Source of the DNA: Cupriavidus necator | GTDB taxonomy: Bacteria > Pseudomonadota > Gammaproteobacteria > Burkholderiales > Burkholderiaceae | Length of the DNA stretch: 32,000 nucleotides | Assembly: GCF_016127575.1 (NCBI RefSeq) | Contig: NZ_CP066018.1 | Span: 3,870,001-3,902,000 of the forward strand | Direction: 5' to 3' | Notes under the pieces: generated by a model | Databases searched by the model: none | The model's input: only the letters and a program-made list of their open reading frames with translations | Told to the model about the DNA's origin: nothing | Program-made: the position numbers and the translations under genes | Shown: positions 7,591-26,682 of the stretch, piece after piece | Layout: each line of letters starts with the position of its first letter | How positions within the stretch are numbered: position 1 is the first letter of the stretch

Positions 7591-7816
7591 GCCAGATGTT
7601 CCAGGTGCCCGGCAGTACGAGATAACCCCGAAAAGTCGCTGTCAGCCTGCCACGCGGCAAGTTTTTGCGCGATGATCGGCTGAAGCGGTCCCGAGGGCTC
7701 CGGAAACGCAGTAGTGCAGGTCCATTGAAACCCAAGACAGCGGGCCTGGCGAGCATCCGCTCCAGGCCCGTGCAAAAGACAATTTGGCGGCAGATCCCGG
7801 CAGGAGACAAGCAAAC

Positions 7817-8965: not shown

Positions 8966-9041
8966 CACACAGCGGCTTCCCGCCGGTCAGACCGACCAAG
9001 CGGCTGTCCGGCGGCCCTCCCTCCACAGCGCAGGAGACAAC

Positions 9042-9563: not shown

Positions 9564-9567
9564 GACG

Positions 9568-9591
9568 GATCGCGGGGCATGCCCCGCGATC
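9568..9591. terminator. Perfect 24-bp palindrome between convergent genes (bidirectional terminator-like)
   Basis: GATCGCGGGGCATGCCCCGCGATC. It lies between the macro-domain stop (9563) and the porin stop (9605). Confidence 0.5.
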
Positions 9592-9604
9592 TCCACCGCC
9601 TGCG

Positions 9605-10777
9605 TCAGAACTTGTGGCGCAGGCCCACGCGCAACACCGCCTGGCTGTCATCGGCCGACGGACGCACGCCGTTGATCGCGGCCACCGCGCGCTTGCCGGT
9701 GGAATCGATTCCCGAGGCCTTCTGGTAGATCGCCATCGCGTAGACATCGGTGCGCCTGGACAGGCTGTAGTCCGCCCCCAGCACGAACTGCCGGTAGCTG
9801 GCGTCATTGATGCCGCTGCCCCTGGCATAGTCCGCGGCCACGCCCATCAGCAATGCCGGCGTCACCTGGTACTTGAAGCTGACTTCCACATTGTTGAAGG
9901 TCGCGGTGCCGCGATAGCCGAACGGATTCGGGCCGGACGACAGGTCTCCCAGGTCCTTGAAGCGCGTGTTGGAGTACGTGGTCCCGACCGTGGCCGCGCC
10001 GAAGCTGTACGCTGCGCCCGCGGCAAAGACTTCCTGCGAGCGCGCCGACGCGTAGCCCGACTGCACCGGCGAGCCGATATTGGTCAGCGTGTTCAACGGT
10101 GCCGAGCCGGTGGTGTTGGCCGTGACACCGGTGCCGTAGAACGAGGTATTGGGGTTCCTGACGTTCAGGTAGCCGATGCCGAGCAGCAACGGCCCGCTGC
10201 CATAGCCCGCGCCCAGCGACCAGATCTGGTTGCGCGCCGGGCTGCCCGCCACGCCGCCCAGGCTGTAGACCCCGCCAAAACTCAGGCCGCCGTAGTTCTG
10301 GCTGCGGAACTTGATGGCGTTGTTGACCCGGGCGGAGTTGTTCAGGTTGTCGATATCGCCGGGGTGGGCGTTGTAGAAGCCGCCCCATTGCGCGCCGATG
10401 TTGAGCGGACCGACAAAATCCACCACCGAGTCGTACTGGCGGCCCATGGTCACCGTGCCGTAGTTGCCGGACAGGCCGACGTACGCCTGGCGCCCGAATA
10501 TCAGGCCGCCCTGCCCCAGCTTGCCGCTGCTGGCGTCGAAGCCGTTTTCCAGCACGAACAGCGCCTTCATGCCACCGCCCAGGTCCTCACTGCCGCGCAG
10601 GCCGAAGCGGCTGGCCTGGATCACGCCGCTGACCAGGCCAAACTGGTGATGGCCACCGGCGTTGTTGTTGTAGGTCAGGCCTTCATCGACGACGCCATAG
10701 AGGGTCACGCTGCCCTGTGCGCAAGCCATCTGCGCGAATCCGCCGATCAATGCAAAACCTGCAAGCTGCTTTTTCAT
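9605..10777 (-). CDS. Outer-membrane general porin (Gram-negative porin family, Burkholderiales type)
   Basis: MKKQLAGFALIGGFAQMACAQ is a signal peptide, followed by GSVTLYGVVDEGL... The body is Gly/Tyr/Asn-rich beta-strand sequence, and the C-terminus is ..LRVGLRHKF. The ATG at 10777 has GGAGGAAAC upstream. Confidence 0.9.
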   Translation of the reverse strand: MKKQLAGFALIGGFAQMACAQGSVTLYGVVDEGLTYNNNAGGHHQFGLVSGVIQASRFGLRGSEDLGGGMKALFVLENGFDASSGKLGQGGLIFGRQAYVGLSGNYGTVTMGRQYDSVVDFVGPLNIGAQWGGFYNAHPGDIDNLNNSARVNNAIKFRSQNYGGLSFGGVYSLGGVAGSPARNQIWSLGAGYGSGPLLLGIGYLNVRNPNTSFYGTGVTANTTGSAPLNTLTNIGSPVQSGYASARSQEVFAAGAAYSFGAATVGTTYSNTRFKDLGDLSSGPNPFGYRGTATFNNVEVSFKYQVTPALLMGVAADYARGSGINDASYRQFVLGADYSLSRRTDVYAMAIYQKASGIDSTGKRAVAAINGVRPSADDSQAVLRVGLRHKF

Positions 10778-10936
10778 TCTGTTTCCTCCGTCTTTGAATT
10801 TGTTGCCGCACCTGTTGATTCGCGTCCCTCGCATATGCGCCGACTGGGTGCGGGCCCTCCCGGAACTGCCTTCGAAAACCACTGCAACGACACCTGCTGA
10901 GGGATTCCGCCCGCGTTTCGCTGGCGATGGGCGTGA

Positions 10937-10986
10937 CAAAGCCGCTCACGCCGTGAGCACGGCTTTGCGCCGCTGGCGCAAAGCCG
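10937..10986. other. Two overlapping, mutually exclusive GC-rich hairpins in the leuD-like/porin intergenic region
   Basis: Hairpin A spans 10937-10967: 8+5 bp with a 2-nt bulge (CAAAGCCGCTCAC / GTGAG-CA-CGGCTTTG). Hairpin B spans 10960-10986: a 12-bp perfect stem (CGGCTTTGCGCC GCT GGCGCAAAGCCG). Both use 10960-10967. Confidence 0.5.
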
Positions 10987-11095
10987 AACATCCACCCCTG
11001 GAAAAATCAGAACCAAGAACCGCCGCGCGTTTTGAAAACGACGAGACGCAGGCAGGAATGCGCGTCAGGCCGTCCCGCCCGACAGCCGCCGCGCC

Positions 11096-11722
11096 TTAGC
11101 CATCGAAATGGATCCAGGGCCGGCGCAACCGGTCCGCGCCCTGGAACGCGTCGATGCTTGACGCCAGCTTCAGCGTCAGCGCGATCGGGTCCAGCCCTTC
11201 AAGCAGCATCTGCCGCTGCTCGCTGCCCAGCGTGAAGCCGTACCGCGCGCCCGCTGGCGACACCACTTCCAGCTGCCGGAGGTCGACCGTCACCTGCCGC
11301 GTGGCCGGCGCTGCGGCGCAGTCGTCGGCGAGTGCCTGCACCGTTGCCATCGGCAGCACCACCGGAAGCAGGCCGTTGCGCACGCAGTTGTTGTGGAAGA
11401 TGGCACCGAAGCCGGGCGCAACGATGGCGCGGATGCCGAACTCCTTCAGCGCCCACACCGCATGCTCGCGCGAGGAGCCGCAGCCAAAATTGCTTCCGGC
11501 CAGCAGGATCGACGCCCCGGTGTACTCCGGCTGGTTCAGCACGAACAAGGGATCGGGGCTGCGGTCCGTCCCCGCCAGGTAGCGCCAGCCGGCGAACAGG
11601 CCCTCGGCCAGCCCGTGCCTGGAGACGCGCTTCATTTCCCGCGACGGGATGATGGCGTCGGTGTCGATGTTGATGCGCAGCAGCGGCGCGGCCACGCCGC
11701 GATGCATGGTAAACGGCTCCAT
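11096..11722 (-). CDS. Aconitase-family dehydratase, small subunit (LeuD-like). Probably not the leucine-biosynthesis enzyme.
   Basis: It has ..INIDTDAIIPSREM.. and ..AGSNFGCGSSREHA.. LeuD/swivel-domain motifs. AGGAG lies 6 nt upstream of the ATG at 11722. A 1-nt gap separates it from the large-subunit stop. Confidence 0.85.
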   Translation of the reverse strand: MEPFTMHRGVAAPLLRINIDTDAIIPSREMKRVSRHGLAEGLFAGWRYLAGTDRSPDPLFVLNQPEYTGASILLAGSNFGCGSSREHAVWALKEFGIRAIVAPGFGAIFHNNCVRNGLLPVVLPMATVQALADDCAAAPATRQVTVDLRQLEVVSPAGARYGFTLGSEQRQMLLEGLDPIALTLKLASSIDAFQGADRLRRPWIHFDG

Positions 11723-11723
11723 C

Positions 11724-13145
11724 TCAGGCTCCTGGCGGCCGGCGCGGGTCGGCGATGCGCCCCAGCACGGCCGATGCCGCCACCGTGGCCGGGCCGGCAA
11801 GGTGGGTGCGGGTCTGCGGGCCCTGGCGGCTTTCAAAATTGCGGTTGGTGCTGCTGATCACGCGCTGCCGGTGGCCGAAGCTTTCGCCGCCGGCGTAGAA
11901 GCACATCGAGCAACCCGATTCACGCCACTCGAATCCCGCTTCACGGAACACGCGATCCAGCCCTTCGGCCTCGGCGGCGCGCTTGACGGCGCTGGAAACC
12001 GGCACGCAGATGGCCGTCACGCCGGGCGCCACCTTACGCCCGGCCAGCACACCGGCCGCGCTGCGCAGGTCCGACAGCCGGCTGTTGGTGCAGGAGCCGA
12101 TAAATGCGGCATCGATGGCGATGTCCGCCATCCGCTGCCCGGGACGCAGGTCCATGTAGGACAGTGCGCGCTCCATGGCCTGGCGCGTATCGGCATCGAT
12201 CGCCATGGCGGGGTTGGGCACGGCGCCGTCGACGGCCACGCCGTGCTGCGGGCTGGTGCCCCAGGTCACCATCGGCGCCAGCTGCCTGCAATCCACCGAC
12301 AGCTCGCGGTCGAACACGGCGTCGGCGTCGCTGTACAGGCTGCGCCAGTGCCACAGCGCTGGTTCCCACTGCGCACCGGCGGGCGCATACGGCCGGCCGG
12401 CGAGGTATTCGAAGACCGTGTCGTCGGGCGCGACAATGCCCGAGAACGCCGAGAACTCCACCGCCAGGTTGCACAGCGTCAGGCGCGCCTCGACCGGCAG
12501 GCTGCGCACCGCGCTGCCGCCGAATTCGAGCATATGGCCGCCGGCGCCCGCCGCCGAGTAGCGTGCGATCAGCCACAGCATCAGGTCCTTGGCGCCGACG
12601 CCCGCTGGCAGCGCGCCGTCGAACGACACCCGCATGGTGCGCGGCCGCGTCACGCGCAGCGTCTGCGTCGCCAGCGCATGTTCCGCCTCGGACGAGCCGA
12701 TGCCCCAGGCCAGCGCGCCCAGGCCGCCCTGCGTGCAGGTATGGCTGTCGGGACAGACCACGGTGGTGCCGGGCAAGGCAATGCCCTGTTCCGGCGACAC
12801 CACATGGACGATGCCCTGGCCGGGATCGCCGATATCGAACAGCCGGATGGCCTCGCGCCTGGCGCTGTCGCGCGTGCTGGTGATAAAGGCCTCGCCGCCC
12901 GGCATCAGCGTGCTGTCGTTGCGCCCGGGCCGCGTATCGACGATATGGTCCATGGTGCAGAACGCCAGCGCCGGCGCGCGCACGCGCCGCCCGGCCGCGC
13001 GCAGCGAGCTCAGCGCGATGCTGCCGGTGCGCTCGTGCAGGAAGACGCGGTCTATATGCAGCAGGCTGGCGCCGTCCAGTTCGGCAATGGCATGCGCCTG
13101 CCAAATCTTGTCGAACAGGGTCCGGCCCTGGGACATGGCGCTCAT
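11724..13145 (-). CDS. Aconitase-family dehydratase, large subunit (LeuC-like, 4Fe-4S)
   Basis: 473-aa ORF with ..LHIDRVFLHERTG.., ..FIGSCTNSR.. and ..GCSMCFY.. (putative cluster Cys ligands). The ATG at 13145 overlaps the upstream stop (ATGA). Confidence 0.85.
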   Translation of the reverse strand: MSAMSQGRTLFDKIWQAHAIAELDGASLLHIDRVFLHERTGSIALSSLRAAGRRVRAPALAFCTMDHIVDTRPGRNDSTLMPGGEAFITSTRDSARREAIRLFDIGDPGQGIVHVVSPEQGIALPGTTVVCPDSHTCTQGGLGALAWGIGSSEAEHALATQTLRVTRPRTMRVSFDGALPAGVGAKDLMLWLIARYSAAGAGGHMLEFGGSAVRSLPVEARLTLCNLAVEFSAFSGIVAPDDTVFEYLAGRPYAPAGAQWEPALWHWRSLYSDADAVFDRELSVDCRQLAPMVTWGTSPQHGVAVDGAVPNPAMAIDADTRQAMERALSYMDLRPGQRMADIAIDAAFIGSCTNSRLSDLRSAAGVLAGRKVAPGVTAICVPVSSAVKRAAEAEGLDRVFREAGFEWRESGCSMCFYAGGESFGHRQRVISSTNRNFESRQGPQTRTHLAGPATVAASAVLGRIADPRRPPGA

Positions 13146-14332
13146 CGCTGCGCTCCGATCGCGCGCTCACTCTCCAGCGTGTCGATGGCGTCGCCGCTCA
13201 TGCCCGCGGCCAGCAGTGCCGTGCGCGAATGCTCGCCGGCGCGCGGCAGGTCGCGGTAGACGTCGAAGCGCCGCCCGTCCATCGCAATCGGCAGCGCCGG
13301 CAGCCGCACCTGCTGGCCCGAGGGCAGCGTCACCGGCACCAGCCCGCCGCCCGCGTTCAGGTGCGGATCGTCGAACAGGTCTTCGGGCCGGGAAATCGGC
13401 GCGAACGGCAGGCCACACGCTTCCAGCTTCGCCATCAGTTCCTGCTTGCCGAAGCTGCGGAACATCGGCGCCAGCGCGCCCAGCACGCGCGGCCGCTGCC
13501 GCACGCGTCCGTCGTTGCGGTCCAGGGTGGGGTCGCCGATGAAGTCGGCCAGTGCAAACGCCTCGCAGAACTTGCGCCACTGCGTGTCGCTGACGATGCC
13601 GACAAAGACCGGGGCGCCTTCCATGGTCTCGAAGGTGTCATAAACCCCCCACGCCGAACTGCGCACCGTCATCGGCGGAGCGGGCGTGCCCGTCACGGCC
13701 TGCTGTGCCATGTGCTGGCCGACCAGGAAGGCCGTGGTCTCGAACAGCGAGCTGCACACATGCTGCCCGCGTCCGGTCCGGTGCCGTTCCTGCAGCGCGC
13801 CGAGAATGGCGATCACGCCGAACATCGCGCCGGTGACGTCGATCACCGAGGCGCCGGCGCGCATCGGCTTGCCCGGCAGGCCCGTCATATAGGCCAGCCC
13901 GCCCATCATCTGGGTGACTTCGTCCAGTGCCACGCGCCGGTCGTAGGGGCCGGCAAGAAAGCCCTTGGCCGAGCAGTAGATCAGGCCGGGGTTGTGCGCC
14001 GCCAGCACGCCGTAGCCGAAGCCGTTCTCGTCCATCGCCCCGGCACGGAAGTTCTCGATCACCACGTCGGCGCTGTCCACCAGCCTGCGCACGGCGTCCC
14101 TGCCCGCTGCCGACTTCAGGTCCGCGCACAGGCTCTGCTTGTTGCGGTTGTACATGGCGAAGTAGCCCGCGCCCGAGCCCCCCAGCCGGCGCGTGTTGTC
14201 GCCGCCGGGCGGCTCGACCTTGGTCACCTCCGCGCCCATGTCGGCGAGGATCATGCCGATCGCCGGCCCCATCACCATGTGGGTGAATTCGACTACCTTC
14301 AGGCCAACCAGCGGCCTTTCCATTGTTGTCAT
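13142..14332 (-). CDS. Type III (CaiB/BaiF/Frc family) acyl-CoA transferase
   Basis: It has ..LKVVEFTHMVMGPAIGMILADMGAEVTKVEPP.. and ..ALDEVTQMMGGLAYMTG.. (region of the catalytic Asp). AGGAG lies upstream. Confidence 0.85.
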   Translation of the reverse strand: MTTMERPLVGLKVVEFTHMVMGPAIGMILADMGAEVTKVEPPGGDNTRRLGGSGAGYFAMYNRNKQSLCADLKSAAGRDAVRRLVDSADVVIENFRAGAMDENGFGYGVLAAHNPGLIYCSAKGFLAGPYDRRVALDEVTQMMGGLAYMTGLPGKPMRAGASVIDVTGAMFGVIAILGALQERHRTGRGQHVCSSLFETTAFLVGQHMAQQAVTGTPAPPMTVRSSAWGVYDTFETMEGAPVFVGIVSDTQWRKFCEAFALADFIGDPTLDRNDGRVRQRPRVLGALAPMFRSFGKQELMAKLEACGLPFAPISRPEDLFDDPHLNAGGGLVPVTLPSGQQVRLPALPIAMDGRRFDVYRDLPRAGEHSRTALLAAGMSGDAIDTLESERAIGAQR

Positions 14333-14348
14333 CCGTCGCTCCTGCTGA

Positions 14349-15308
14349 TCATTGCCACGCCGCCAGGACGGCAGGCACGAAGCCCTTGGGCAGGCCGGCC
14401 TCCGGCGTGTGCCCGTAAAGCGGTTCGTCCGCCAGGTTGGCCCTGACGATGTCGCGCACGCGGAACAGCGCCTCCAGGTCGATGCCGGTGCGCAGCCCCA
14501 TCGACTCGAGCAGGAACACCAGGTCCTCCGTCACCACATTGCCGCTCGCGCCGGGCGCGAACGGACAGCCGCCGAGCCCGCCCAGCGAGGCATCGACCGT
14601 GGTCAGGCCCACGTCGATCGCCGCCAGCACATTGGCCAGCCCCTGCCCGCGCGTGTTGTGCAGGTGGATGCCGCTCAGGTGCTGCTGCCCGATCGCGCGC
14701 CATACCGCCAGCGTCAGGCTGCGCACCTGGCGCGGATTGCCGTAGCCGGTGGTGTCGGACAAGCCGACTTCGTCGCAGCCCGCGTCCATCAGCGCTTCGG
14801 CCAGCCCGACCACGCGCGCCTCGGCGACCGGGCCTTCCAGCGTGCAGCCGAATGCGGTCGACAGCCCCGCCTCGAAGCGCGGCCGCGCATGGGCCGGCAA
14901 GGCGCGGATGCGTTCGGCAATGCGCCGGACCTCGCGCAGCATCTGCTCATGGGTGCGGTTGACGTTGCGCAGGCTGTGCGTCTCGCTGACCGACACCGGG
15001 ATGGTGAGCTTGTGCACGCCGGCGCCGATGGCGCGCTCGGCGCCCACGTAGTTGGGCACCAGTGCCGCCACCGTGAGCCCGCCGATGCCGAGCGCGTGCG
15101 CCACCACCTCGGCCGTGTCCGCCATCTGCGGCAGCACCGTGGCCGGAACGAACGAGCCGACCTCGATCTCGCGCACGCCGGCGGCGGCTTCCGCGCTGAT
15201 CCAGGCCTTCTTGGCCGCGGTCGCCATCACGCGCCGGGTCATCTGCAGGCCGTCGCGCGGGCCGACTTCGCTGACCAGTACGTCGATGTTCTGCATGTTT
15301 GCTGTCAT
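14349..15308 (-). CDS. HMG-CoA-lyase-family (HMGL-like) hydroxyacyl-CoA lyase
   Basis: It has ..EVGPRDGLQ.., ..HLHNTRGQGLAN.. and ..GGLGGCPFAPGASGNV.. motifs of the HMGL family. The ATG at 15308 overlaps the upstream stop (ATGA). Confidence 0.85.
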   Translation of the reverse strand: MTANMQNIDVLVSEVGPRDGLQMTRRVMATAAKKAWISAEAAAGVREIEVGSFVPATVLPQMADTAEVVAHALGIGGLTVAALVPNYVGAERAIGAGVHKLTIPVSVSETHSLRNVNRTHEQMLREVRRIAERIRALPAHARPRFEAGLSTAFGCTLEGPVAEARVVGLAEALMDAGCDEVGLSDTTGYGNPRQVRSLTLAVWRAIGQQHLSGIHLHNTRGQGLANVLAAIDVGLTTVDASLGGLGGCPFAPGASGNVVTEDLVFLLESMGLRTGIDLEALFRVRDIVRANLADEPLYGHTPEAGLPKGFVPAVLAAWQ

Positions 15309-16249
15309 GGGTTTTCCTGTGGTTGGGAATCCTGTGCCGCGAACGCCGCGAGAATCTCGCCCGCGCCCGCGCTCCAGACTTCAGGTCTTGCCATCACGTA
15401 TTCGAGCGCGGCTTCCAGGTAGCGGATCCGGTGCGGCTGCCCCAGCACCCACGGGTGCACGGACAGCGCGAGGATGCGCCCGCCCTGTTCGCGCGCTTCG
15501 TCGAGCAGCAGGTCGCAGGCGTCTTTCACCTGCCGCGCCCACGATGCTTCCGGGTGCAGGTTCTCCATCAGCACGAAGCGGTCCTCCAGCTCGGTCGACA
15601 GCGGCATCGCCCACAACTTGCCGTGGCGCGTGCGGAACGGGTAAGGCATGTCGTCGTTGACCCAGTCGCACAGGTACTCGATGCCGTTGGCGCGCAGCAG
15701 CTCCGGCGTATTGGCGCTCTGCAGCTTGCCGGGGCTGAGCCAGCCGCGGACGTCTTGCCCGCTGAGCGTACGCAGCCGGTCCAGCGAACGCCGGACGACT
15801 TCCGCCTCGACGGCTTCATCCAGGCCGCCGGCGTGTGCGGTGTCCATGCTCCATGAATGGCCGATGATCTCGTCGCCGCGCTCGCTCACCGTGGCGAGCA
15901 GCGACGGATACAGCTCGGCCAGCCGCGCATTGATGGCAAAGGTCGGGCGCACGCCGTAGCGGTCGAAGCCGCGCAGCATCCGGTGGATGCCGATGCGGTT
16001 GCCGTAGTCGCGCAGCGTGTAGTGGCGCAGGTCCGGATACGGCATGGTCATGTTGCCCGGCACCGCCACCGGTTTGCCGGTCGGGTTCAGCGGGAAGAAC
16101 TGCAGGCTGACGTTGACCCACAGGGCCAGCGTCTTGCCGCCTGGCCAGCGCACCGGCGCGCGGCTTGCCAGCATCGACCAGTCATAGCGGTCGTGGTCCA
16201 TGCCGGCGCGGCGGTGCGGGTATTGCGGGGCTTGATGGTCGCGTGGCAT
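15305..16249 (-). CDS. CE4/polysaccharide-deacetylase-like hydrolase, paralog B (cytoplasmic, probable small-molecule amidohydrolase)
   Basis: It contains ..VRWPGGKTLALWVNVSLQFF.., ..LRDYGNRIGIHR.., ..IIGHSW.. and ..LEAALEYV... GGAGGG lies 7 nt upstream of the ATG at 16249, which overlaps the upstream stop (TGATG). An alternative ATG at 16201 lacks an SD. No signal peptide. Confidence 0.75.
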   Translation of the reverse strand: MPRDHQAPQYPHRRAGMDHDRYDWSMLASRAPVRWPGGKTLALWVNVSLQFFPLNPTGKPVAVPGNMTMPYPDLRHYTLRDYGNRIGIHRMLRGFDRYGVRPTFAINARLAELYPSLLATVSERGDEIIGHSWSMDTAHAGGLDEAVEAEVVRRSLDRLRTLSGQDVRGWLSPGKLQSANTPELLRANGIEYLCDWVNDDMPYPFRTRHGKLWAMPLSTELEDRFVLMENLHPEASWARQVKDACDLLLDEAREQGGRILALSVHPWVLGQPHRIRYLEAALEYVMARPEVWSAGAGEILAAFAAQDSQPQENP

Positions 16250-17175
16250 CAGCACGCCCTCCGCACCGGGTTGGCTGCGGCAATCGCAGCCGCGGCCGTG
16301 TCGTAGCAATGTTCGAGGTAGTAATCGGCGATCTCGCGGCCGGTGGTGACCCAGACATCCGCGTGGCCAGTGATGTATTCCAGCGCTTCCTCGAAGGCGC
16401 GCAGCCGGTGCGGGCAGCTGACCTGGTAGTTATGGGTCGGGATGCACATCACGGTGCCGGACTCGGCCCCTTCCGCATAGAGCCGGTCGAAGCAGTCCTT
16501 CAGCATCTGCCCGTAGCGGCGCGGCTCGGCCTTGTTCACCACGTAGGCGATGGTGTCGTTCATCTCCAGCGAGTACGGCAGCGAGATAAAGCGCTGGCCG
16601 CCGCGCACGCGCACCGGCGTGGGCTGGTCGTCATGGAACAGGTCGCAGGTATAGCGGCCGCCCAGTTCGGCGAACAAGTCCAGAGTCGATTCGCTGTGCG
16701 ACAGCGCTGGCGCCAGGTAGCCGGCCGGCTTGCTGCCGGTGCAGTCCTCGATGATCTGCATCGACTCGCGGATCATCTCGCGCTCCTGTTCCTCGGACAT
16801 GCCGTAGGTGTAGCGCGTGTTGTAGATGCCGTGCGAGAAGAACTCCCACTCGCGCTCCATGCACATCGCCACGATCTCGGGGTGATGCACGCACAGCGCC
16901 GCCGACAGCGACACCGAGCCGCGGATGCCGTACTTGTCCAGCAGCCGCATCTGGCGCTGATGGCCGACGCGGTTGCCGTAGTCGCGGATCGAGTAGCCCG
17001 GCACCGCGGGGTACGGATGGGGCCATGCGCGCCGGTGCGGATTGCCTGGCGGGTCGAGTTCGTAGAACTCGATGTTGGGCGCGACCCAGAAGGCCAGCCG
17101 TGCCCCGCCCGGCCAGCTGATCCTGGGGCGGTCCTGGTAGGGCCAGTAGTCGTAGTAGCCGGGGCTTTCACGCAT
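16249..17175 (-). CDS. CE4/polysaccharide-deacetylase-like hydrolase, paralog A
   Basis: It contains ..ISWPGGARLAFWVAPNIEFYE.., ..IRDYGNRVGHQR.., ..FFSHGIY.. and ..FEEALEYI... The ATG at 17175 has an AAGGGGGA SD and lies 1 nt after the upstream stop. No signal peptide. Confidence 0.75.
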   Translation of the reverse strand: MRESPGYYDYWPYQDRPRISWPGGARLAFWVAPNIEFYELDPPGNPHRRAWPHPYPAVPGYSIRDYGNRVGHQRQMRLLDKYGIRGSVSLSAALCVHHPEIVAMCMEREWEFFSHGIYNTRYTYGMSEEQEREMIRESMQIIEDCTGSKPAGYLAPALSHSESTLDLFAELGGRYTCDLFHDDQPTPVRVRGGQRFISLPYSLEMNDTIAYVVNKAEPRRYGQMLKDCFDRLYAEGAESGTVMCIPTHNYQVSCPHRLRAFEEALEYITGHADVWVTTGREIADYYLEHCYDTAAAAIAAANPVRRAC

Positions 17176-17176
17176 G

Positions 17177-17869
17177 TCAGTCCCCCTTCGCGGTGTGCAG
17201 CATGGCATGCTGGTCTTCGAGCCAGTTCTGCACCTCGAGCACGTCGAGCACGTCGGCGTATTTCAGCATCAGGTCGGTCAGGTTGGCGAAGTGGTAGCTC
17301 TCATGCTTGTCGGCCACGCACTGCTCCGGCACGATGGTGCGATACCCGCGTGACAGCGAATCCACCGCCGTGGCGCGCACGCAGCCCGAGGTGGAGCCGC
17401 CGGTGATGACCACGGTATCCACCTGGTGCCACACCAGCAACGACTGCAGCTGGGTCTCGAAGAACGCCGACGGCATCTTCTTGCAATAGACCACGTCGCG
17501 CACCGGATCGACGTCGACGCGGCTGTCGAACTGCGCGCGCTCCGACCCATGCTTGATGTTCTGCAGCGAATCCGGCGTATCGGTGCGGGTGCCCCAGATG
17601 CCCGCATCCTCGCCGGACGCCATGTACGCCACCCGCGTCCACACCACCGGCCAGCCCAGCGCCCGGAAGCGCCGCGCCAGCCCGTTGATATGCGCCAGCT
17701 GCGCGGGATCGGTCTCGTACGCGGTCTTGAAGCGGTCGGTGCAGGTGTAGGCGTTCTGCAGGTCGATATTGACCAGCACCGCCTTGCGCCCGAAGCCGAA
17801 GCGCGCCCGGCTGGGGTTGGCCCTGACCTCCTGCCAGATCTGGCGCGCGGTCTTGTCTGACAATTCCAT
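17177..17869 (-). CDS. Isochorismatase-family cysteine amidohydrolase (NicF / RutB / N-carbamoylsarcosine amidase / biuret hydrolase type)
   Basis: It has ..AVLVNIDLQNAY.. (Asp), ..VVYCKKMPSAFF.. (Lys) and ..VITGGSTSGCVRATAVD.. (nucleophile Cys). These match the D-K-C triad pattern of the family. GGAG lies 7 nt upstream. Confidence 0.85.
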   Translation of the reverse strand: MELSDKTARQIWQEVRANPSRARFGFGRKAVLVNIDLQNAYTCTDRFKTAYETDPAQLAHINGLARRFRALGWPVVWTRVAYMASGEDAGIWGTRTDTPDSLQNIKHGSERAQFDSRVDVDPVRDVVYCKKMPSAFFETQLQSLLVWHQVDTVVITGGSTSGCVRATAVDSLSRGYRTIVPEQCVADKHESYHFANLTDLMLKYADVLDVLEVQNWLEDQHAMLHTAKGD

Positions 17870-17915
17870 CGGTTTGACTCCGTTCTTTGCTTCTCTGATT
17901 GCTGGATGGGTACGC

Positions 17916-18621
<706 letters not shown>

Positions 18622-18629
<8 letters not shown>

Positions 18630-19389
18630 GGGCGGCCGCCTCCTGCTGCGCGCCGATGCGCTGCGCCATGCCGTGGCCCAGGTAGGCCTCGATCACCTGC
18701 GGGTCGCGCGTCACCTGCGCGGGCGAACCCTGCGCGATCAGCCGGCCGCCGGCCAGCACGAATACGTCCTGCGCCAGGTTCATCACCGCCTGCATCACGT
18801 GCTCGATCATCACGACGGTCACGCCGTCGTCGCAGATGCCGCGCACCACCGGGATCATCGCGGCGATTTCGCCGGGGTTGAGCCCGGCCAGCACCTCGTC
18901 CAGCAGCAGCACGCGCGGCCGCGTGGCCAGTGCGCGCGCCAGCTCCAGGCGCTTGCGCCCGGCCACGGTCAGGCTCGAAGCGCTCTTGTGCAGCTGGTCT
19001 TCCAGCCCGACCCGGCGGGCCACTTCATCGGCGTGTGCCAGCGCCACATTGCGGCCGCGCACATGCAGGTGCGCGCCGACCGCGATGTTCTCGCGCACGG
19101 TCTGCCCGGCAAACGGCTGCACGATCTGGAAGGTGCGCGCCAGCCCGAGCCGGCAGATGACATGAGGCGCGAGCCCGTTGAGGGTGCGGCCTTCCAGCTC
19201 CACCGTGCCCTGCGTGGGCGCGAGGAAGCCGGACAGCATGCCGAACAGGGTCGACTTGCCGGCGCCGTTGGGGCCGATCAGGCCGGTGATGCGGCCGCGC
19301 GCAATGGACAGGTTCACGTCCTGCACCGCCGCCAGGCCGCCGAAGCGGATCGACAGTCCGTGGGTCGAAAGTATGGTCTGCATCGTCAT
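18622..19389 (-). CDS. HAAT-family ABC transporter ATP-binding protein (LivG-like)
   Basis: It has Walker A (GPNGAGKST), Walker B (VLLLDEVLAG) and the LivG-type C-terminal extension. Confidence 0.9.
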
Positions 19390-19399
19390 TTCCCTTGCC

Positions 19400-20365
19400 T
19401 TATGCCCTCGCCTTGCGCACCGATCCGGCCGCCCCGGCCAGGCCCTGCGGCAGGAACATCACCATCAGCACCAGCAGCGCGCCGTAGATCACCAGGCTCA
19501 CGCCCGGCACATCGCCCAGCGCATTGCGCGTCAGCTCGTTGAGCAGCTGCAGCGCCAGCGCGCCGAGCAGCGGGCCGAACACCGTGGCGGTGCCGCCGAT
19601 CACCGCCCCAACCAGCGCGGCCACCGAAAAGGCCGGACCGTAGGCGATATGCGGATCGAGGTATTGCAGGTACTGCGTATAAAAAACGCCGGCCGCCGCC
19701 ATCAGCGCCGCGGACATGGCAATGGCTACCAACTTGACGCGCAGCACGTCGATGCCGAGCGCCTTCGCCGCGTCCTCACTGTCCCGCACCGCCATCAGAC
19801 AGGCACCGAAGCGCGACCTGCGCAGCCACCACGAGAGGAGAAGGCCCGCGGCGACGAACGTCAGGATGAACCAGAGGTAGCCAGCCTTGCCGGCAAACTG
19901 GAGATGCAAGGCACCGGGCTGCAACGGCAACTGCATGCCTGCACCGGCACCGGTAAAACCGACCGCATTGGCCACGATGCGCAGCACCTCGGCCACCGCC
20001 AGCGTCGCCAGCGAGAAGTACGAACCCTTGAGCCCGTAGCGGAACGACAGCACGCCCACGCCGACGCCGGCGAGCGCGCCGACGCCGGTCGCCAGCACCA
20101 GCGCCAGCCACGCATTCATGCCGAACGCGACCTGCAAGATCGCCATGGCATAGGCGCCGGTGCCGAAGAACGCCGCGTGGCCGAACGAGAACTGCCCGCC
20201 AAAGCCGCCGAGGATGTTCCACGACTGCGCCATCAGCGTCATCAGCAGCACCATCACCAGCAGGTTCAGCGCGAAGCCGGAGGACAGCCACAGCGGCGCC
20301 GCGGCAAAGCCGGCCAGAACGATGGCGATCCAGCCGAGCGTGGGAAGAGAAGAAATTCGATTCAT
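19400..20365 (-). CDS. HAAT-family ABC transporter permease (LivM-like)
   Basis: 321-aa polytopic hydrophobic ORF containing ..SFGHAAFFGTGAY... GAGGAG lies upstream. Confidence 0.9.
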   Translation of the reverse strand: MNRISSLPTLGWIAIVLAGFAAAPLWLSSGFALNLLVMVLLMTLMAQSWNILGGFGGQFSFGHAAFFGTGAYAMAILQVAFGMNAWLALVLATGVGALAGVGVGVLSFRYGLKGSYFSLATLAVAEVLRIVANAVGFTGAGAGMQLPLQPGALHLQFAGKAGYLWFILTFVAAGLLLSWWLRRSRFGACLMAVRDSEDAAKALGIDVLRVKLVAIAMSAALMAAAGVFYTQYLQYLDPHIAYGPAFSVAALVGAVIGGTATVFGPLLGALALQLLNELTRNALGDVPGVSLVIYGALLVLMVMFLPQGLAGAAGSVRKARA

Positions 20366-20380
20366 GTCAGGCTCCTCGAG

Positions 20381-21253
20381 TCACGCCTTCGCGCCGAACA
20401 GGCCCTGCGGACGGAACAGCAGCACCAGGATGAAGATCAGGAAAATGCCGACCTGGCCCAGGCTGTCGCCCAGCCACAGGCCGCCCAGTGACTCGACCAC
20501 GCCGATCAGCAGGCCGCCCCACAGCGCCCCGGCGAAGCTGCCCATGCCACCCAGCACGACCACGGTGAAGGCGATCAGCACGAAGCCGTCGCCGACGCGC
20601 GGATTGACGTAGTAGGCCGGCAGCAGGAAGCAGGCGGCCGCGCCCAGGCAGGCCAGGCCGATGCCGAAACTGAGCGCATAGACGCGCTCGACATCGATGC
20701 CGACCACGCGCGCGCCCTGCTTTTCCCTGGCCACCGCGCGGATGGCGCGGCCCAGCGTGGTGCGCCGGATCATCAGCATCAGCAGGCCGCAGGCCAACAG
20801 TGCGCCGGCGAAGGCGATCACCTTGGGCAGCGCGATCGATGCACCCAGCAGCTCGACGGTGGACAGCGCATAGGGCGTGTCGATGGTGTAGGTGTCGGAG
20901 CGGAACAGGTACAGCGCCAGGTTCTCCAGCACGATCGAGATGCCCAGCGTGACCAGCAGCACGTTCTGCTCGTTGCCGCGACTTGCCCGCGCGATCAGGT
21001 GGCGCTGCAGCAGGTAGCCCGCGGCGAACATGGCCGGCAGCATCACCAGCAGCGCCGCGTAGGGATCGACATGGAGCCGGGTAAAGAGGAAATAGACGCC
21101 ATACAGCGCCGCCATCAGCGCGGCGCCGTGGGCGAAGTTGACGATATGGAGCACGCCGTAGATCAGCGTCAGGCCCAGCGCGACCAGGGCATAGATCGCC
21201 CCGGTGGTCAGGCCGTTGAGCCAGGAGGCCCAGAGTATCGGGATATCGAACAT
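20381..21253 (-). CDS. HAAT-family ABC transporter permease (LivH-like)
   Basis: MFDIPILWASWLNGLTTGAIYALVALGLTLIYGVLHIVNFAHG.. is the typical LivH N-terminus. The ATG at 21253 has a GAGGAA SD. Confidence 0.9.
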   Translation of the reverse strand: MFDIPILWASWLNGLTTGAIYALVALGLTLIYGVLHIVNFAHGAALMAALYGVYFLFTRLHVDPYAALLVMLPAMFAAGYLLQRHLIARASRGNEQNVLLVTLGISIVLENLALYLFRSDTYTIDTPYALSTVELLGASIALPKVIAFAGALLACGLLMLMIRRTTLGRAIRAVAREKQGARVVGIDVERVYALSFGIGLACLGAAACFLLPAYYVNPRVGDGFVLIAFTVVVLGGMGSFAGALWGGLLIGVVESLGGLWLGDSLGQVGIFLIFILVLLFRPQGLFGAKA

Positions 21254-21286
21254 GTAATGCGTTCCTCGCGGCAACAGGAGTCCAGC

Positions 21287-21308
21287 GTCGGGAAGCGGGC
21301 TTCCCGAC
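21287..21308 (-). other. Intercistronic stem-loop between the binding-protein and permease genes
   Basis: GTCGGGAAGC GG GCTTCCCGAC, a 9-10 bp stem. It lies inside the 104-bp gap, the largest in the operon. Confidence 0.5.
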
Positions 21309-21357
21309 CGTAGCGACTAGGGATAAACGGCGTACCGGCGCGACCGGCGTGAAGCGC

Positions 21358-22575
21358 TTAGCTGGCCGGCAGCGGGAACACCGCGTCGACCTGCCGGTAG
21401 GCGTTGGGGAAGACCACCTTGATGTCGCCATCCACCACCTGCGTCAGCAGCGGCTGCGCGCCGGTGTTCTGGCCGTTGACGAAGCGCGTCGGCCCGTACG
21501 GCATGAAGTGGCTGCTGAAGCTGCTGCTGGCGAGCGCTTCGATCACGCGCTCGCGCTGCGCCGAGCCGGCGCGCTCAATGCTGTCGGCCAGCAGCATGGT
21601 GGACGCATAGGTGCAGAAAACCTCGTAGGTAAAGAACAGGCCGCTGGCCTCAACGCGCTTGCGCAGCGCAATGGCGCGAGGATCCCTGGGGTTGTACCAG
21701 TGGTTGCAGTCCAGCACATGCTGCGCCGCCGCCGGGAACTCCTTGATGAACTTGAAGCTCGACGCCGCGCCGCCCAGCACCGAGTAGACCGCCTTGGGCC
21801 GGAACTTCTGCTGCTGCATGGTGCGCATCAGCAGGGCGTACTCGTTGTAGTAGTTGGCCGCGATCACGATGTCCGGATCGGCCGCCTTCATGCGTAGCAC
21901 GATATTGCTGAAGTCGCGCGTCGGGTTGGCGTGCTTGACCACCTCCTTCACCTCGAAACCGAACTCCGGCAGGCGCTGGCTCAGCAGCTTGGCCGTGCCA
22001 CTGCCGAACAGCGATTCCTCGTGGATGATCATCGCCGTGCGCGCGCGGTTGCCGCTGAGCTGGTTGAGCGTGCGCAGGTTGCTCATCGCGGTTTCGGTGG
22101 CGACCTTGTAGCCGGGGCCGAAGCGGAACGTGTTGGTCAGGCCGCGCTCGACGATGGCATCGGCCACGCCCACGTCGACCACATGCGCCAGGCCATGCCG
22201 CGCCGCCGCCTGCGTGGTGGCCAGGCAGATCGCGCTGGCATAGGCGCCGACCACGGCGCTGACGCCGGCCTCGTTCATCTTCTCGACTTCGGCCGCGCCG
22301 ATCTCCGGCTGCGACTGGGCATCGCCCAGCACCGCTTCCAGCCTGGCGCCGCCCAGCGACTTGATACCGCCGGCGGCGTTGATGTCGGCGATCGCCAGCA
22401 GCGCGCCGGCACGGCATTGCGTGCCGGAAAACGCCAGCGCTCCGGTGACCGGATGCAGCACGCCGATGCGCACCGGCCTGGGCTGGGCCCGTCCGATCTG
22501 CGGCGCCAGCGCACCGGCGCCAAGCAGCGCGGCCTGGCCCAGGAACCGGCGTCTTGCCGGATAAGTCTTGGTCAT
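21358..22575 (-). CDS. HAAT-family periplasmic substrate-binding protein (type I PBP, LivK/AmiC/UrtA superfamily)
   Basis: MTKTYPARRRFLGQAALLGAGALAPQIGRAQ is a Tat-like signal, followed by ..VRIGVLHPVTGALAFSG... The ATG at 22575 has a GGGAGGAGA SD. Confidence 0.9.
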   Translation of the reverse strand: MTKTYPARRRFLGQAALLGAGALAPQIGRAQPRPVRIGVLHPVTGALAFSGTQCRAGALLAIADINAAGGIKSLGGARLEAVLGDAQSQPEIGAAEVEKMNEAGVSAVVGAYASAICLATTQAAARHGLAHVVDVGVADAIVERGLTNTFRFGPGYKVATETAMSNLRTLNQLSGNRARTAMIIHEESLFGSGTAKLLSQRLPEFGFEVKEVVKHANPTRDFSNIVLRMKAADPDIVIAANYYNEYALLMRTMQQQKFRPKAVYSVLGGAASSFKFIKEFPAAAQHVLDCNHWYNPRDPRAIALRKRVEASGLFFTYEVFCTYASTMLLADSIERAGSAQRERVIEALASSSFSSHFMPYGPTRFVNGQNTGAQPLLTQVVDGDIKVVFPNAYRQVDAVFPLPAS

Positions 22576-22600
22576 TTCTGTCTCCTCCCGATTTCTTGGA

Positions 22601-23383
22601 TCACCGCGTCGCGGTGGATAGGTCGCGCGCAAGCCAGATACGCGCCTTGTCTTCGCCAGCGCGCGTCAGCGCCATGCGGTAGTCGTAGCATTGCGGGCGA
22701 TACAGGCCGCTGAGCCACTGGACCGGGTTGCCGTCGACATCGCGCACCACGCGCACCACCGACAGCAGCGCCGCACCCACCGGCTCGTCCAGCAGCGCCG
22801 CGGCCTGCGCGTCGGCCAGGCAGCAGGACAGCGTCTGGTCGGCGTGGCCGATGCGAACCCCGCCGTCTTCCAGCAGCGCCAGCATGGGCTGCTGCTGCAG
22901 CGCGCCCGGTGTCAGCAACAGCGCCACGTGCGGCGGCGACCATGTCGTGATCAGCGAGACCGGTTCGTCCCGGTGCAGGCGCACGCGCATCACGTGCAGG
23001 GCTTCGTCCCGCTCCGCCAGCCGCAGCGCCTCCCGGACGTGCGTGGGGCAGCTCCGCATGCCGAAATCGACCACCCGCACCGAGGTGCCGGCGACGACTT
23101 CGAGCAGGCTGTCGAGCAGGCCGCACATCTGCGCTGGTGGCCTGTTCAGCCGAACCTGCTCGATATTGACGAATGTCCCCTGCCCGGGCCGCCGGTAGAT
23201 CAGGCCTTCCTGGAGCAGCTCGGCTAACGCCCGCCGCACCGTCACCCGCGCCACGCGATACTGCTCCATCAAGCGGAACTCGGCCGGCAGCCCGCTCTCG
23301 TCGTATAACCCGTTCAGGATTTTCTGCCGCAGCACCAGGTAAATGCGGTGATACCGCGGCATCGGCGAATTTTGGTTTCCCAT
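22601..23383 (-). CDS. GntR-family transcriptional regulator, HutC subfamily (wHTH + UTRA effector domain)
   Basis: It has ..LPAEFRLMEQYRVARVTVRRALAELLQEGLIYRRPGQGTFV.. and a UTRA-like C-terminal half. It lies 25 nt upstream of, and co-directional with, the transporter genes. The start could be 23383 or the ATG at 23362. Neither has a good SD. Confidence 0.85.
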   Translation of the reverse strand: MGNQNSPMPRYHRIYLVLRQKILNGLYDESGLPAEFRLMEQYRVARVTVRRALAELLQEGLIYRRPGQGTFVNIEQVRLNRPPAQMCGLLDSLLEVVAGTSVRVVDFGMRSCPTHVREALRLAERDEALHVMRVRLHRDEPVSLITTWSPPHVALLLTPGALQQQPMLALLEDGGVRIGHADQTLSCCLADAQAAALLDEPVGAALLSVVRVVRDVDGNPVQWLSGLYRPQCYDYRMALTRAGEDKARIWLARDLSTATR

Positions 23384-23495
23384 AAATGGCGGCTGCTATC
23401 TTTCGACCCGTTGAAATTTATCGGTTCACCGACATCGGATACTTCCCGTTCAGGCCAATTAGTCAAGGGAATATCGGCTCTGAAGCATGGACCGA

Positions 23496-23543
23496 AAGAT
23501 ATATCAGTATTATTGTCGCTTCAATAGGACAACTAATAGGACA
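23496..23543 (-). promoter_or_regulatory. Candidate promoter and operator of the GntR-headed operon
   Basis: Minus strand: TTGAAG (23524-23519), a 17-nt spacer, then TATCTT (23501-23496). The direct repeat AATAGGACA sits at 23523-23531 and 23535-23543. The inverted repeat TTGTC-N10-GACAA spans 23513-23532. All lie within the only AT-rich tract of the window. Confidence 0.25.
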
Positions 23544-23691
23544 TCGTAGATATTTTCCCCAATGAGACATGGAATGAAAGCCAGCCCTTAATAAAAAGTC
23601 AGGGGTCGTCCGGATTACTCAGTAAATGCTTCAGACGTTCCGGAAACACCAGCGCGAGCCGGACAGCGCCAGGCATGGCGCACCAACAAAA

Positions 23692-23714
23692 AGCCCCGCC
23701 ATCAAGGCGGGGCT
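23692..23714 (-). terminator. Rho-independent terminator of the upstream alpha/beta-hydrolase gene
   Basis: The minus strand reads AGCCCCGCC TTGAT GGCGGGGCT followed by TTTTTGTTGG. It is about 50 nt downstream of the stop at 23764. Confidence 0.8.
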
Positions 23715-23763
23715 GAAAGCTGCTGACTGGGGTTTCGTTGGCGGCCCGAACGACATCTGGCAG

Positions 23764-24711: not shown

Positions 24712-24745
24712 ATGCGGTCCTCCTCGTTGTGGCGTTGTGCTGGCG

Positions 24746-25648: not shown

Positions 25649-25707
25649 ATCGTCTGTCCTGTCGCGTGATTCGTTTTGGGAAACGGCGGGCCGTGTGCCA
25701 TGCGCGC

Positions 25708-26643: not shown

Positions 26644-26682
26644 GCGATCCAACTCCATGTTTGCCAGCGGGTGCCGTGCGGT

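Follow-up and report, generated by a model that had tools for sequence, protein, structure and literature searches.

Thirteen co-directional genes occupy the minus strand between positions 23383 and 11096 of a 32,000-nt stretch of Cupriavidus necator DNA (contig NZ_CP066018.1, positions 3,870,001 to 3,902,000; 67.7% G+C), hereafter the window. In order of transcription they encode a GntR/HutC-type regulator, an ABC importer, an isochorismatase-like hydrolase (ISO), two paralogous hydrolases of the CE4 fold (CE4-A and CE4-B), an HMG-CoA-lyase-family protein (HMGL), a class III CoA-transferase and the two subunits of a LeuCD-like hydratase (Table 1). Gene boundaries, taken from the open reading frame listing and translation, are identical to the gene calls of the NCBI record CP196472.1, on which the CE4-A protein is encoded identically. 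The products of 17869-11096 are exact matches to the Cupriavidus necator H16 proteins CAJ92676-CAJ92682 (chromosome 1), named at source 'amidase related to nicotinamidase', 'polysaccharide deacetylase', 'chitooligosaccharide deacetylase', 'HMG-CoA lyase', 'putative acyl-CoA transferase' and 'LeuC/LeuD'. The longest open reading frame at the first permease (20367-21431) was rejected as the permease, being an Arg/Pro-rich wrong-frame shadow of the LivH-like gene.

Table 1. Features of the operon and its immediate flanks (positions in the window)
Feature	Position	Strand	Basis
GntR/HutC-type regulator, winged-helix and UTRA effector domain, first gene of the operon	22601-23383	-	Pfam
Periplasmic substrate-binding protein of HAAT-type ABC importer	21358-22575	-	Peripla_BP_6
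LivH-like ABC permease	20381-21253	-	hydrophobic membrane translation; BPD_transp_2 on identical gene call
LivM-like ABC permease	19400-20365	-	BPD_transp_2
LivG-like ABC ATPase	18622-19389	-	ABC_tran, BCA_ABC_TP_C
LivF-like ABC ATPase	17916-18629	-	ABC_tran
ISO, isochorismatase-like cysteine amidohydrolase, predicted half-amide or N-carbamoyl deamidase	17177-17869	-	PF00857
CE4-A, PuuE-like CE4-fold hydrolase, predicted catalytic subunit of an imidase-type ring opener	16249-17175	-	PF01522
CE4-B, paralog of CE4-A, probably non-catalytic or auxiliary	15305-16249	-	PF01522
HMGL, HMG-CoA-lyase family, predicted to cleave a 3-hydroxy-3-substituted acyl-CoA	14349-15308	-	PF00682
Class III (CaiB/BaiF) CoA-transferase	13142-14332	-	PF02515
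LeuC-like large subunit of aconitase-family [4Fe-4S] hydratase	11724-13145	-	PF00330
LeuD-like small subunit of hydratase	11096-11722	-	PF00694
AT-rich promoter/operator region (operator role putative)	23384-23691	-	GC content, direct repeat
Twin G+C-rich hairpin, about 110 nt past the leuD stop codon	10943-10986	-	folding
Downstream co-directional porin gene	9605-10777	-	Porin_4/Porin_1

The genes are tightly packed, with 4-nt ATGA overlaps at 13142-13145 and 15305-15308, a one-base overlap (TGATG) at 16247-16251, an 8-nt overlap of the two ATPase genes at 18622-18629, 1-nt gaps at 17176 and 11723, and a widest intergenic gap of 104 nt (21254-21357). The original prediction, made from the sequence before these searches, had described a 13-gene co-directional operon with such gaps and overlaps between an upstream terminator, the sole AT-rich tract of the window and a structured 318-nt spacer; the open reading frame listing and the CP196472.1 gene calls reproduce the layout in full, and the flanking elements are recovered as well. 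The only part of the window below 50% GC (150-nt windows) lies at 23341-23670, with a minimum of 40%. Within it, TGTCCTATT occurs as a tandem repeat spaced at 12 nt (on the plus strand, AATAGGACA at 23523-23531 and at 23535-23543). The repeat, together with the adjoining TAATACTGATATATC block, is kept in C. necator EM36 despite divergent flanks, and may be the operator to which the GntR/UTRA protein binds. A simple scan found no convincing sigma-70 promoter. On the minus strand, the terminator at 23714-23692 (a 9-bp stem with 8 G-C pairs and a T-run), which closes an upstream alpha/beta-hydrolase gene, is the strongest of seven terminator-like sites on both strands of 9400-24000, seven being about the number expected from shuffled sequence. 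Within the spacer after leuD, a twin hairpin made of a perfect 12-bp stem and then a 7-bp one has a folding energy of -40.3 kcal/mol (z = -3.08; 0/200 shuffles fold as well). No terminator was flagged there by the simple terminator scan because the hairpin lacks a clean T-run, and it is the probable 3' end or stabiliser of the transcript. No Rfam RNA family was found in the window. Overlapping or near-abutting genes between one AT-rich promoter tract and a downstream hairpin thus support the operon.

All family assignments made earlier hold in profile searches against Pfam and NCBIfam (June 2026). ISO (PF00857, 6.5e-32) keeps the triad of isochorismatase-like cysteine hydrolases, Asp36 being present in 76/77 sequences and Lys130 and Cys163 each in 77/77. 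Its solved relatives are N-carbamoylsarcosine amidase 26st (3.6e-29), 4l07 (6.4e-29) and 3ot4 (2.2e-19); we take 4l07 (and 4l08) to be the maleamate amidase Ami of Pseudomonas putida S16, and 3ot4 (and 3uao) to be Bordetella NicF. In NCBIfam it reaches no curated equivalog (BiuH 34 bits against a cut-off of 370, RutB 31 against 378, nicotinamidase not reached), and neither a maleamate-amidase nor an N-carbamoylsarcosine-amidase model is among its matches there. The substrates of N-carbamoylsarcosine amidase and maleamate amidase are isosteric (H2N-CO-X-Y-COO-), so that ISO by itself is compatible with a half-amide and an N-carbamoyl compound alike, the former being favoured by the downstream enzymes. 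The NicF-like deamidase proposed originally therefore stands as a member of the isochorismatase family, without the specific likeness to NicF, as ISO is equally close to N-carbamoylsarcosine amidase.

CE4-A and CE4-B are 33% identical and show the PF01522 fold signal at 1e-8. The solved relatives of CE4-A are the PuuE structure 3cl6 (3.9e-29) and 3s6o (1.1e-24), both also matched by CE4-B, and the match to HpPgdA 3qbu, representing the HpPgdA-like subgroup with the cyclic-imide hydrolases (EC 3.5.2.16) Pseudomonas putida CIH and HxnM, is only moderate (2.8e-19 for CE4-A, 3.4e-9 for CE4-B). The PuuE allantoinase model TIGR03212 is the best NCBIfam match of both paralogs, at 129.9 bits for CE4-A and 86.8 for CE4-B against a cut-off of 424.6, and CE4-A is about 30% identical to PuuE; a purine or allantoin role of the pair was rejected on this equivalog score and the genomic context. 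PuuE and the Burkholderia phytofirmans imidase BpIH, a homotetramer 91% identical to 3s6o and 61% to PuuE, are metal-independent, with catalytic residues Glu36 and His259 in PuuE and Glu38, His127 and Trp131 in BpIH (PMC11424739). In alignments to 3s6o and 3cl6, Glu36, His115 and His248 of CE4-A fall on these catalytic residues. The motif Asn34-x-Glu36 and both histidines are present in at least 81/82 sequences (Glu in 81/82, each His in 82/82), and Asn119 (81/82) sits where PuuE and BpIH have the triad Trp. The canonical Asp-His-His metal site is absent from both paralogs (Glu36, His115 and Asn119 in CE4-A; Gln50, His131 and Asp136 in CE4-B), neither of which has the features of a canonical CE4 polysaccharide or peptidoglycan deacetylase.

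CE4-B, which is translationally coupled to CE4-A, has Gln in place of the catalytic Glu in 70/78 orthologs. Its distant relatives (loci L084-L087) keep the Glu and lose the equivalent of His115 (Burkholderia plantarii, Comamonas), of His248 (plasmid pJE1) or of both (plasmid pAt15955), with Asn or Ala in place of His115 and Thr or Ser in place of His248; the catalytic residues of CE4-A are unchanged in all pairs with a degenerate CE4-B. Because at least one catalytic residue is lost in every lineage examined, CE4-B is probably a non-catalytic or auxiliary partner, and we infer from these substitutions an A/B heteromer in which only CE4-A would be catalytic. Of the three C-N hydrolases counted originally, the families are thus confirmed and the number is not, two enzymes being the probable count. 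The accompanying statement that the CE4 fold includes cyclic-imide hydrolases is borne out by published work (PMC11424739, PMC8478523, PMC9304392): PuuE-like and HpPgdA-like CE4 enzymes are proven cyclic imidases, paired with a downstream amidase, and both fungal HxnM, which with HxnN forms an imidase-plus-amidase precedent, and the Pseudomonas putida imidase are of the CE4 fold and related to PuuE (PMC9304392, PMC8478523).

In the distal part of the operon, the LeuC-like (PF00330, 1.6e-149) and LeuD-like (PF00694, 1.7e-30) proteins form an aconitase-superfamily [4Fe-4S] hydro-lyase, with the cluster-ligand cysteines Cys352, Cys412 and Cys415 of the former invariant in 22 sequences. The large subunit scores 705 bits with the paralog model PRK12466 and 533.6 with the LeuC equivalog TIGR00170, under its cut-off of 560.25; the small subunit scores 242 bits with PRK01641 and passes TIGR00171. 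A role as 3-isopropylmalate dehydratase in leucine biosynthesis was rejected because of the TIGR00170 score and the catabolic operon context, neither leuA nor leuB being found near these genes. HMGL belongs to the HMG-CoA lyase family (PF00682, 1.1e-40; NF004283, 275 bits against a cut-off of 246; solved HMG-CoA lyases, 6e-59) and conserves the catalytic Arg-Asp (Arg18, Asp19) and His-x-His (His215, His217) residues as well as Cys248. The CoA-transferase matches PF02515 over residues 8-369 (8.9e-106, 354 bits), as expected of class III, and its solved relatives include succinate-hydroxymethylglutarate CoA-transferase 9br7 (6.9e-45). It reaches no NCBIfam equivalog, the succinate-glutarate, mesaconate and formyl-CoA transferase models all being far under their cut-offs.

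A database search with CE4-A gives 5673 relatives at E <= 1e-20, of which the top 120 are 78-90% identical to it and include some from marine Gammaproteobacteria, and a scan of one genome per species confirmed at least 582 relatives. Neighbourhoods were counted in the best 80 of these at least 582 loci (74-94% CE4-A identity), onto all of which the 13 window proteins were mapped, and 49 with at least 8 kb on either side were treated as full loci. The best 80 come from Burkholderiales, Rhodocyclales, Halieaceae, Microbulbifer, Halomonas, Marinobacter, Alteromonas, Shewanella, SAR92, Pseudohongiella and a few Alphaproteobacteria. Wherever the contig allows, ISO lies immediately upstream of CE4-A (78/78 loci) and CE4-B immediately downstream (79/79), i.e., the three form a fixed unit, hereafter the core, which is 74-94% identical across Beta-, Gamma- and some Alphaproteobacteria and 55-60% on plasmids, and whose hundreds of host species live in soil, freshwater and the sea. 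Around it, 26/49 full loci have a LeuC-type gene, 24 an HMGL-type gene and 21 a gene of the PEP-mutase/ICL family; at least one lyase, HMGL-like or ICL-like, is found in 38, and a hydratase or a lyase in 43, leaving six with neither.

The hydratases fall into three lineages by identity to the LeuC-like protein of the window: 55-71%, 47-50% (the Halomonas/Marinobacter group and locus L061) and 34-37%, the last with a LeuD/DmdB-type small subunit of 166-172 aa (Rhodocyclaceae, Sterolibacterium, Burkholderia plantarii). CE4-A in these hydratase-variant loci is 74-83% identical, or 59% in the plasmid-borne B. plantarii copy. Three hydratase lineages beside a steady CE4-A therefore indicate repeated recruitment, or non-orthologous replacement, of one function. 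In Halomonas, Marinobacter, B. plantarii plasmid p1 and Sterolibacterium, an ICL-type lyase stands in place of the CoA-transferase/HMGL pair; its nearest relatives are petal death protein, 2-methylisocitrate lyase and 2,3-dimethylmalate lyase, and it scores under the PrpB equivalog cut-offs. Gene order also varies. Marinobacter has a tautomerase-SnoaL protein, ICL, ISO, CE4-A, CE4-B and FAD_binding_2 with a divergent GntR-LeuC-LeuD-DctPQM set, and Microbulbifer bruguierae has ISO-CE4-CE4 with divergent CoA-transferase-HMGL-LeuC-LeuD, GntR/UTRA and SSF genes. On the conjugative B. plantarii plasmid p1, GntR-LeuC-LeuD-FAD oxidoreductase-ICL-porin is divergent from ISO-CE4-CE4-MFS, and on Sphingomonas pJE1, HMGL-ISO-CE4-CE4-LeuC-LeuD-ICL lies beside CoA-transferase-LeuC-LeuD, so that both lyase versions occur in one cluster. 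Agrobacterium pAt15955 (L086, 8977-13762) carries a CE4 pair 48% identical to CE4-A, TetR and MFS genes, and an amidase-signature amidase in place of ISO, a replacement that fits a ring opener combined with a generic half-amidase; the first CE4 gene there is annotated merely as 'hypothetical protein'. The functional link from C-N hydrolases to hydratase and lyase proposed for the window is thus backed by neighbourhood conservation in three proteobacterial classes and on plasmids, and the recurring logic would be that of a ring/amide hydrolase pair, an amidase, an alkyl-maleate hydratase and a C-C lyase, either CoA-dependent or CoA-independent.

The regulator (GntR 1.5e-15, UTRA 5.9e-25) has a GntR/UTRA counterpart adjoining the hydrolase core in about 40/81 related loci. 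The transporter is the least conserved part, with a HAAT binding protein in 2/49 full loci and SSF (Microbulbifer bruguierae), TRAP DctPQM (Marinobacter, Halomonas) or MFS transporters in others. The binding protein of the window matches Peripla_BP_6 (5.4e-48), and its best solved relative is 8wch, a 'probable Leu/Ile/Val-binding protein' (1.3e-36); UrtA models align with residues 35-115 only, at 50 bits against a cut-off of 493, and a full-length likeness to UrtA or AmiC was not found. For this reason the importer, originally termed amide-type, is better described as having a generic HAAT/Peripla_BP_6 binding protein.

Taken together, it is somewhat more probable than not that all thirteen genes make up a single GntR/HutC-regulated operon for the catabolism of a small organic nitrogen compound, one that contains or yields a cis-butenedioate (maleate-type) half-amide. 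The HAAT-type ABC system would import the compound, and a heteromeric PuuE-type CE4-A/B enzyme, probably metal-independent and with CE4-A as catalytic subunit and CE4-B as degenerate partner, would open a cyclic imide to the half-amide or, less likely, remove an N-acyl group. ISO would then release ammonia, leaving an alkyl-substituted maleate, to which the LeuCD-like Fe-S hydratase would add water to give a 2-hydroxy-2-alkyl-succinate of the (R)-citramalate or D-malate type. After activation of this product by the class III CoA-transferase, HMGL would cleave the CoA ester, yielding a 2-oxoacid, for example pyruvate, and an acyl-CoA, which would be acetyl-CoA if C3 carries no substituent. In outline this is the scheme of the original prediction, C-N hydrolysis to a maleate-type diacid followed by hydration and cleavage. 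Its gene families, gene anatomy and linkage are observed, as is the conservation of catalytic residues; the substrate of every step and the order of the steps, like the CE4 heteromer, remain predictions from homology and gene context.

Several observations weigh against this scheme. The closest solved relatives of the binding protein are amino-acid binders, and the TRAP and SSF transporters of other loci suggest that the imported molecule has a carboxylate, so that a half-amide or a carboxylated imide fits better than a plain imide; unsubstituted maleimide, a thiol-reactive toxin, is an unlikely growth substrate. A LeuC-type gene lies within 8-10 kb of the core in only about half of the full loci, and 6/49 lack all of these downstream hydratase and lyase genes. 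ISO is no less similar to a carbamoyl-amidase than to a maleamate amidase, and the Asn of CE4-A at the triad Trp position, together with its score of 129.9 bits against the PuuE cut-off of 424.6, means that the chemistry of CE4-A could differ.

One alternative is a cyclic-ureide route, in which the CE4 pair would attack a hydantoin- or pyrimidine-type ring in the manner of an allantoinase or hydantoinase and ISO, like N-carbamoylsarcosine amidase or RutB, would serve as an N-carbamoyl amidase releasing CO2 and NH3; LeuCD, CoA-transferase and lyase would process the remaining carbon skeleton or serve a separate step. PuuE allantoinase being both the best solved relative (3.9e-29) and, as TIGR03212, the best NCBIfam match of CE4-A, N-carbamoylsarcosine amidohydrolase 26st (3.6e-29) heading the solved relatives of ISO, and HyuA-type hydantoinase/oxoprolinase homologs, recognised by eye from sequence, lying near the core in several marine loci all speak for such a route. 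However, decarbamoylation would yield an amino acid, and the core has no conserved aminotransferase, deaminase or ammonia-lyase partner; the recurrent 2-alkyl-malate-type hydratase and lyase partners would be left unexplained, and an ordinary amidase takes the place of ISO on pAt15955. We regard this route as rather unlikely.

Also improbable is that the CE4 pair strips a formyl or acetyl group from an N-acyl-maleamate, for example N-formylmaleamate, which other enzymes of the cell or bacteria nearby would make from 2,5-dihydroxypyridine, with ISO as a NicF-type maleamate amidase and the maleate hydrated rather than isomerised. The carboxylate of such a compound would suit the TRAP and SSF transporters, CE4 is by origin a family of de-N-acetylases (PF01522), ISO is related to the 4l07 and 3ot4 amidases, and in Halieaceae the genes beside the core include Rieske oxygenases and alpha/beta hydrolases. 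Against it, both paralogs are without the canonical Asp-His-His metal site of CE4 enzymes, their nearest relatives of known function are ring openers, and neither the window nor most loci contain a ring-cleaving dioxygenase or hydroxylase. Finally, a chance fusion in Cupriavidus of a nitrogen-scavenging module (regulator, ABC importer and three hydrolases) with an unrelated organic-acid module (LeuCD-like, CoA-transferase and HMG-CoA lyase, e.g., for HMG or citramalate-type acids) could account for the half of full loci without a nearby LeuC-type gene, the 6/49 without any of the downstream hydratase or lyase genes and the passing of a generic HMG-CoA lyase subfamily model by HMGL, but is very improbable because the 4-nt CE4-B/HMGL overlap (15305-15308) indicates translational coupling and the pairing recurs, with varied gene order, hydratase lineage and lyase type, in Alpha-, Beta- and Gammaproteobacteria and on two plasmids.

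Several known systems resemble parts of the proposed imide or half-amide route. Blastobacter sp. A17p-4 degrades cyclic imides through an imidase and then a half-amidase, and this system, like HxnM/HxnN, shares with the operon the sequence from imide opening to a half-amide and on to a dicarboxylate and ammonia. In these systems, however, the product enters central metabolism directly, whereas the operon has a dedicated hydratase/lyase branch and, as ring opener, a conserved paralog pair of which one member is degenerate; for the second step they also use an amidase-signature enzyme, in contrast with the isochorismatase-fold cysteine hydrolase of the operon. Among CE4 enzymes, cyclic-imide hydrolysis is found in both PuuE-like and HpPgdA-like forms, and CE4-A is closer to PuuE (3.9e-29) than to HpPgdA 3qbu (2.8e-19). 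PuuE, like BpIH, is a homotetramer. PuuE allantoinase and the BpIH/AfIH imidases (PMC11424739) share with CE4-A the fold, the catalytic Glu and both His, and the loss of the Asp-His-His metal site, but differ in sequence (only about 30% identity), in being homotetramers in the case of PuuE and BpIH, as opposed to the implied obligate A/B pair, in having the triad Trp where CE4-A has an invariant Asn and, for PuuE, in a purine-catabolic context unlike that of the operon.

NicF and Ami, of nicotinate and nicotine catabolism, resemble ISO in their isochorismatase fold, their Asp-Lys-Cys triad and a pathway position that yields a cis-enedioate; unlike in their systems, genes of the nic or nicotine pathways (hydroxylases, 2,5-dihydroxypyridine dioxygenase, maleate isomerase) are absent here, and the equal match of ISO to N-carbamoylsarcosine amidase sets it apart from them. 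For the distal steps, Eubacterium barkeri ferments nicotinate with the dimethylmaleate hydratase DmdAB and the 2,3-dimethylmalate lyase Dml, and HbzIJ is a maleate hydratase. LeuCD-type hydration of an alkyl-maleate followed by C-C cleavage to pyruvate and an acid is common to DmdAB plus Dml and the proposed scheme, and many sister loci, with a LeuD/DmdB-type small subunit and a methylisocitrate/dimethylmalate-lyase-like protein, are closer still, the ICL-type lyase and LeuCD-type hydratase mirroring the DmdAB and Dml pair. In the window, by contrast, cleavage would be CoA-dependent (CoA-transferase and HMGL), and the diacid would derive from an amide or imide and not from methylitaconate. Chloroflexus aurantiacus has a succinyl-CoA:D-citramalate CoA-transferase and an (R)-citramalyl-CoA lyase, by description likewise a class III CoA-transferase followed by an HMGL-family lyase giving acetyl-CoA and pyruvate, although this pair serves autotrophic glyoxylate assimilation and not catabolism.

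A full-text literature search, with most subscription journals outside its scope, found no paper describing the gene set. ISO, the two CE4 proteins, the CoA-transferase and the substrate-binding protein are all without an equivalog in NCBIfam, which also has no model that assigns the set as a whole. PMC3417382 was rejected as a description of the cluster, as it lists unrelated Burkholderia cenocepacia genes. The statement in the original prediction that no characterised pathway has this gene set therefore agrees with the literature covered and the curated models, and we see a small chance that the set has already been described somewhere. The parts are all from known families and the pathway logic has precedents; new here are the conserved three-gene core, its variable transporter, hydratase and lyase surroundings, and the unequal CE4 pair.

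As for the natural substrate, the core and its alkyl-maleate hydratase and lyase might be a widespread route consuming monopyrrole fragments of oxidised tetrapyrroles (chlorophyll, bilin, haem), an idea that we consider quite improbable as it stands. Substrates would be 3,4-disubstituted maleimides or succinimides such as hematinic acid and methyl-ethyl-maleimide, whose ring opening and deamidation would give a 2-methyl-3-alkyl-maleate, in the case of hematinic acid the methyl analogue of cis-homoaconitate. A LeuCD/homoaconitase-type enzyme would hydrate it, and a methylisocitrate-lyase-like enzyme, or CoA-transferase and HMGL, would release pyruvate and butyrate or glutarate, or their CoA esters. 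The dimethylmalate/methylisocitrate-type lyase, the TRAP and SSF transporters and the fumarate-reductase/TcuA-like flavoproteins of sister loci, the last with a potential for interconversion of succinate-type and maleate-type compounds, would be compatible with this idea, as would the frequency of the core in phytoplankton-associated marine Gammaproteobacteria.

Further genes recur near the core. A second module lies about 1-9 kb upstream of it in nine loci (L017, L019, L023, L025, L026, L040, L051, L055, L067) from Microbulbifer, Alteromonas, Cellvibrionaceae, Massilia and Paraglaciecola; it comprises a REDY/HapK-like 103-aa protein and an SDR (profile searches), a third CE4 paralog about 30% identical to CE4-A (tblastn) and, by eye, a CitE-like lyase, a MaoC hydratase, an acyl-CoA dehydrogenase and a CoA-transferase, and may handle the saturated, succinimide-type analogue. 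In Halieaceae, a Rieske/VanA-type oxygenase lies immediately upstream of the core in L031, L032 and L038 (L038, 7396-8562) and a few genes from it in L033, L039, L048 and L069, and the same loci have two alpha/beta-hydrolase-like proteins, recognised by eye, and an ICL-type lyase, which hints that the core substrate is there produced from a larger molecule. Four recurrent neighbour families (c12, c13/c27, c17, c21) have no Pfam match. One is a 243-aa protein encoded immediately before ISO (16 loci); the others are a 323-aa protein found beside a Crp regulator (10 loci), a 299-aa protein (12 loci) and a set of 220-aa membrane proteins (examples at L010 8536-9267, L069 6834-7805, L028 6893-7792, L049 4635-5315 and L025 8445-9110).

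In the window itself, the downstream porin may take part in outer-membrane uptake for the system, its membership being uncertain: a homolog is found among the genome-scan loci only in C. necator strains (L002, L004), and the B. plantarii plasmid cluster has an annotated porin too. Upstream on the minus strand, 23764-28619 encodes a class II aldolase, a 311-aa glutathione S-transferase (GST), an SDR, an alpha/beta hydrolase and an NADP-dependent enone-reductase-type oxidoreductase. Genes of the GST, SDR and enone-reductase types recur beside the core in marine genomes at only about 30-40% identity and, given this low identity and the strong terminator in between, the genes at 23764-27543 (aldolase II, GST, SDR, alpha/beta hydrolase) were left out of the system. 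The plus-strand genes at 15-4724 (the C-terminal NBD_C domain of a four-carbon acid-sugar kinase, a class II aldolase, an MFS transporter, a xylose-isomerase-like TIM barrel protein and an NAD epimerase) form a sugar-acid-type cluster that, we presume, resembles those for threonate/erythronate (tetronate) catabolism. The genes at 5394-9563, for a TctC/Bug-family binding protein, a carboxylesterase, an iron-containing alcohol dehydrogenase and a Macro-domain protein, have no apparent link to the operon.

If the proposed role is correct, it would correct the labels 'polysaccharide deacetylase', 'chitooligosaccharide deacetylase', 'allantoinase', '3-isopropylmalate dehydratase' and 'HMG-CoA lyase' in thousands of entries, and would extend the metal-independent CE4 hydrolases, which are industrially relevant as enantioselective imidases, e.g., for pregabalin intermediates (PMC11424739), by a heteromeric type with one degenerate partner. 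The host, C. necator H16, is genetically tractable. The operon would provide a gene-level basis for bacterial catabolism of cyclic imides or half-amides and, with the core in at least 582 species-representative genomes and also on conjugative plasmids, would represent a widespread pathway for the salvage of nitrogen and carbon.

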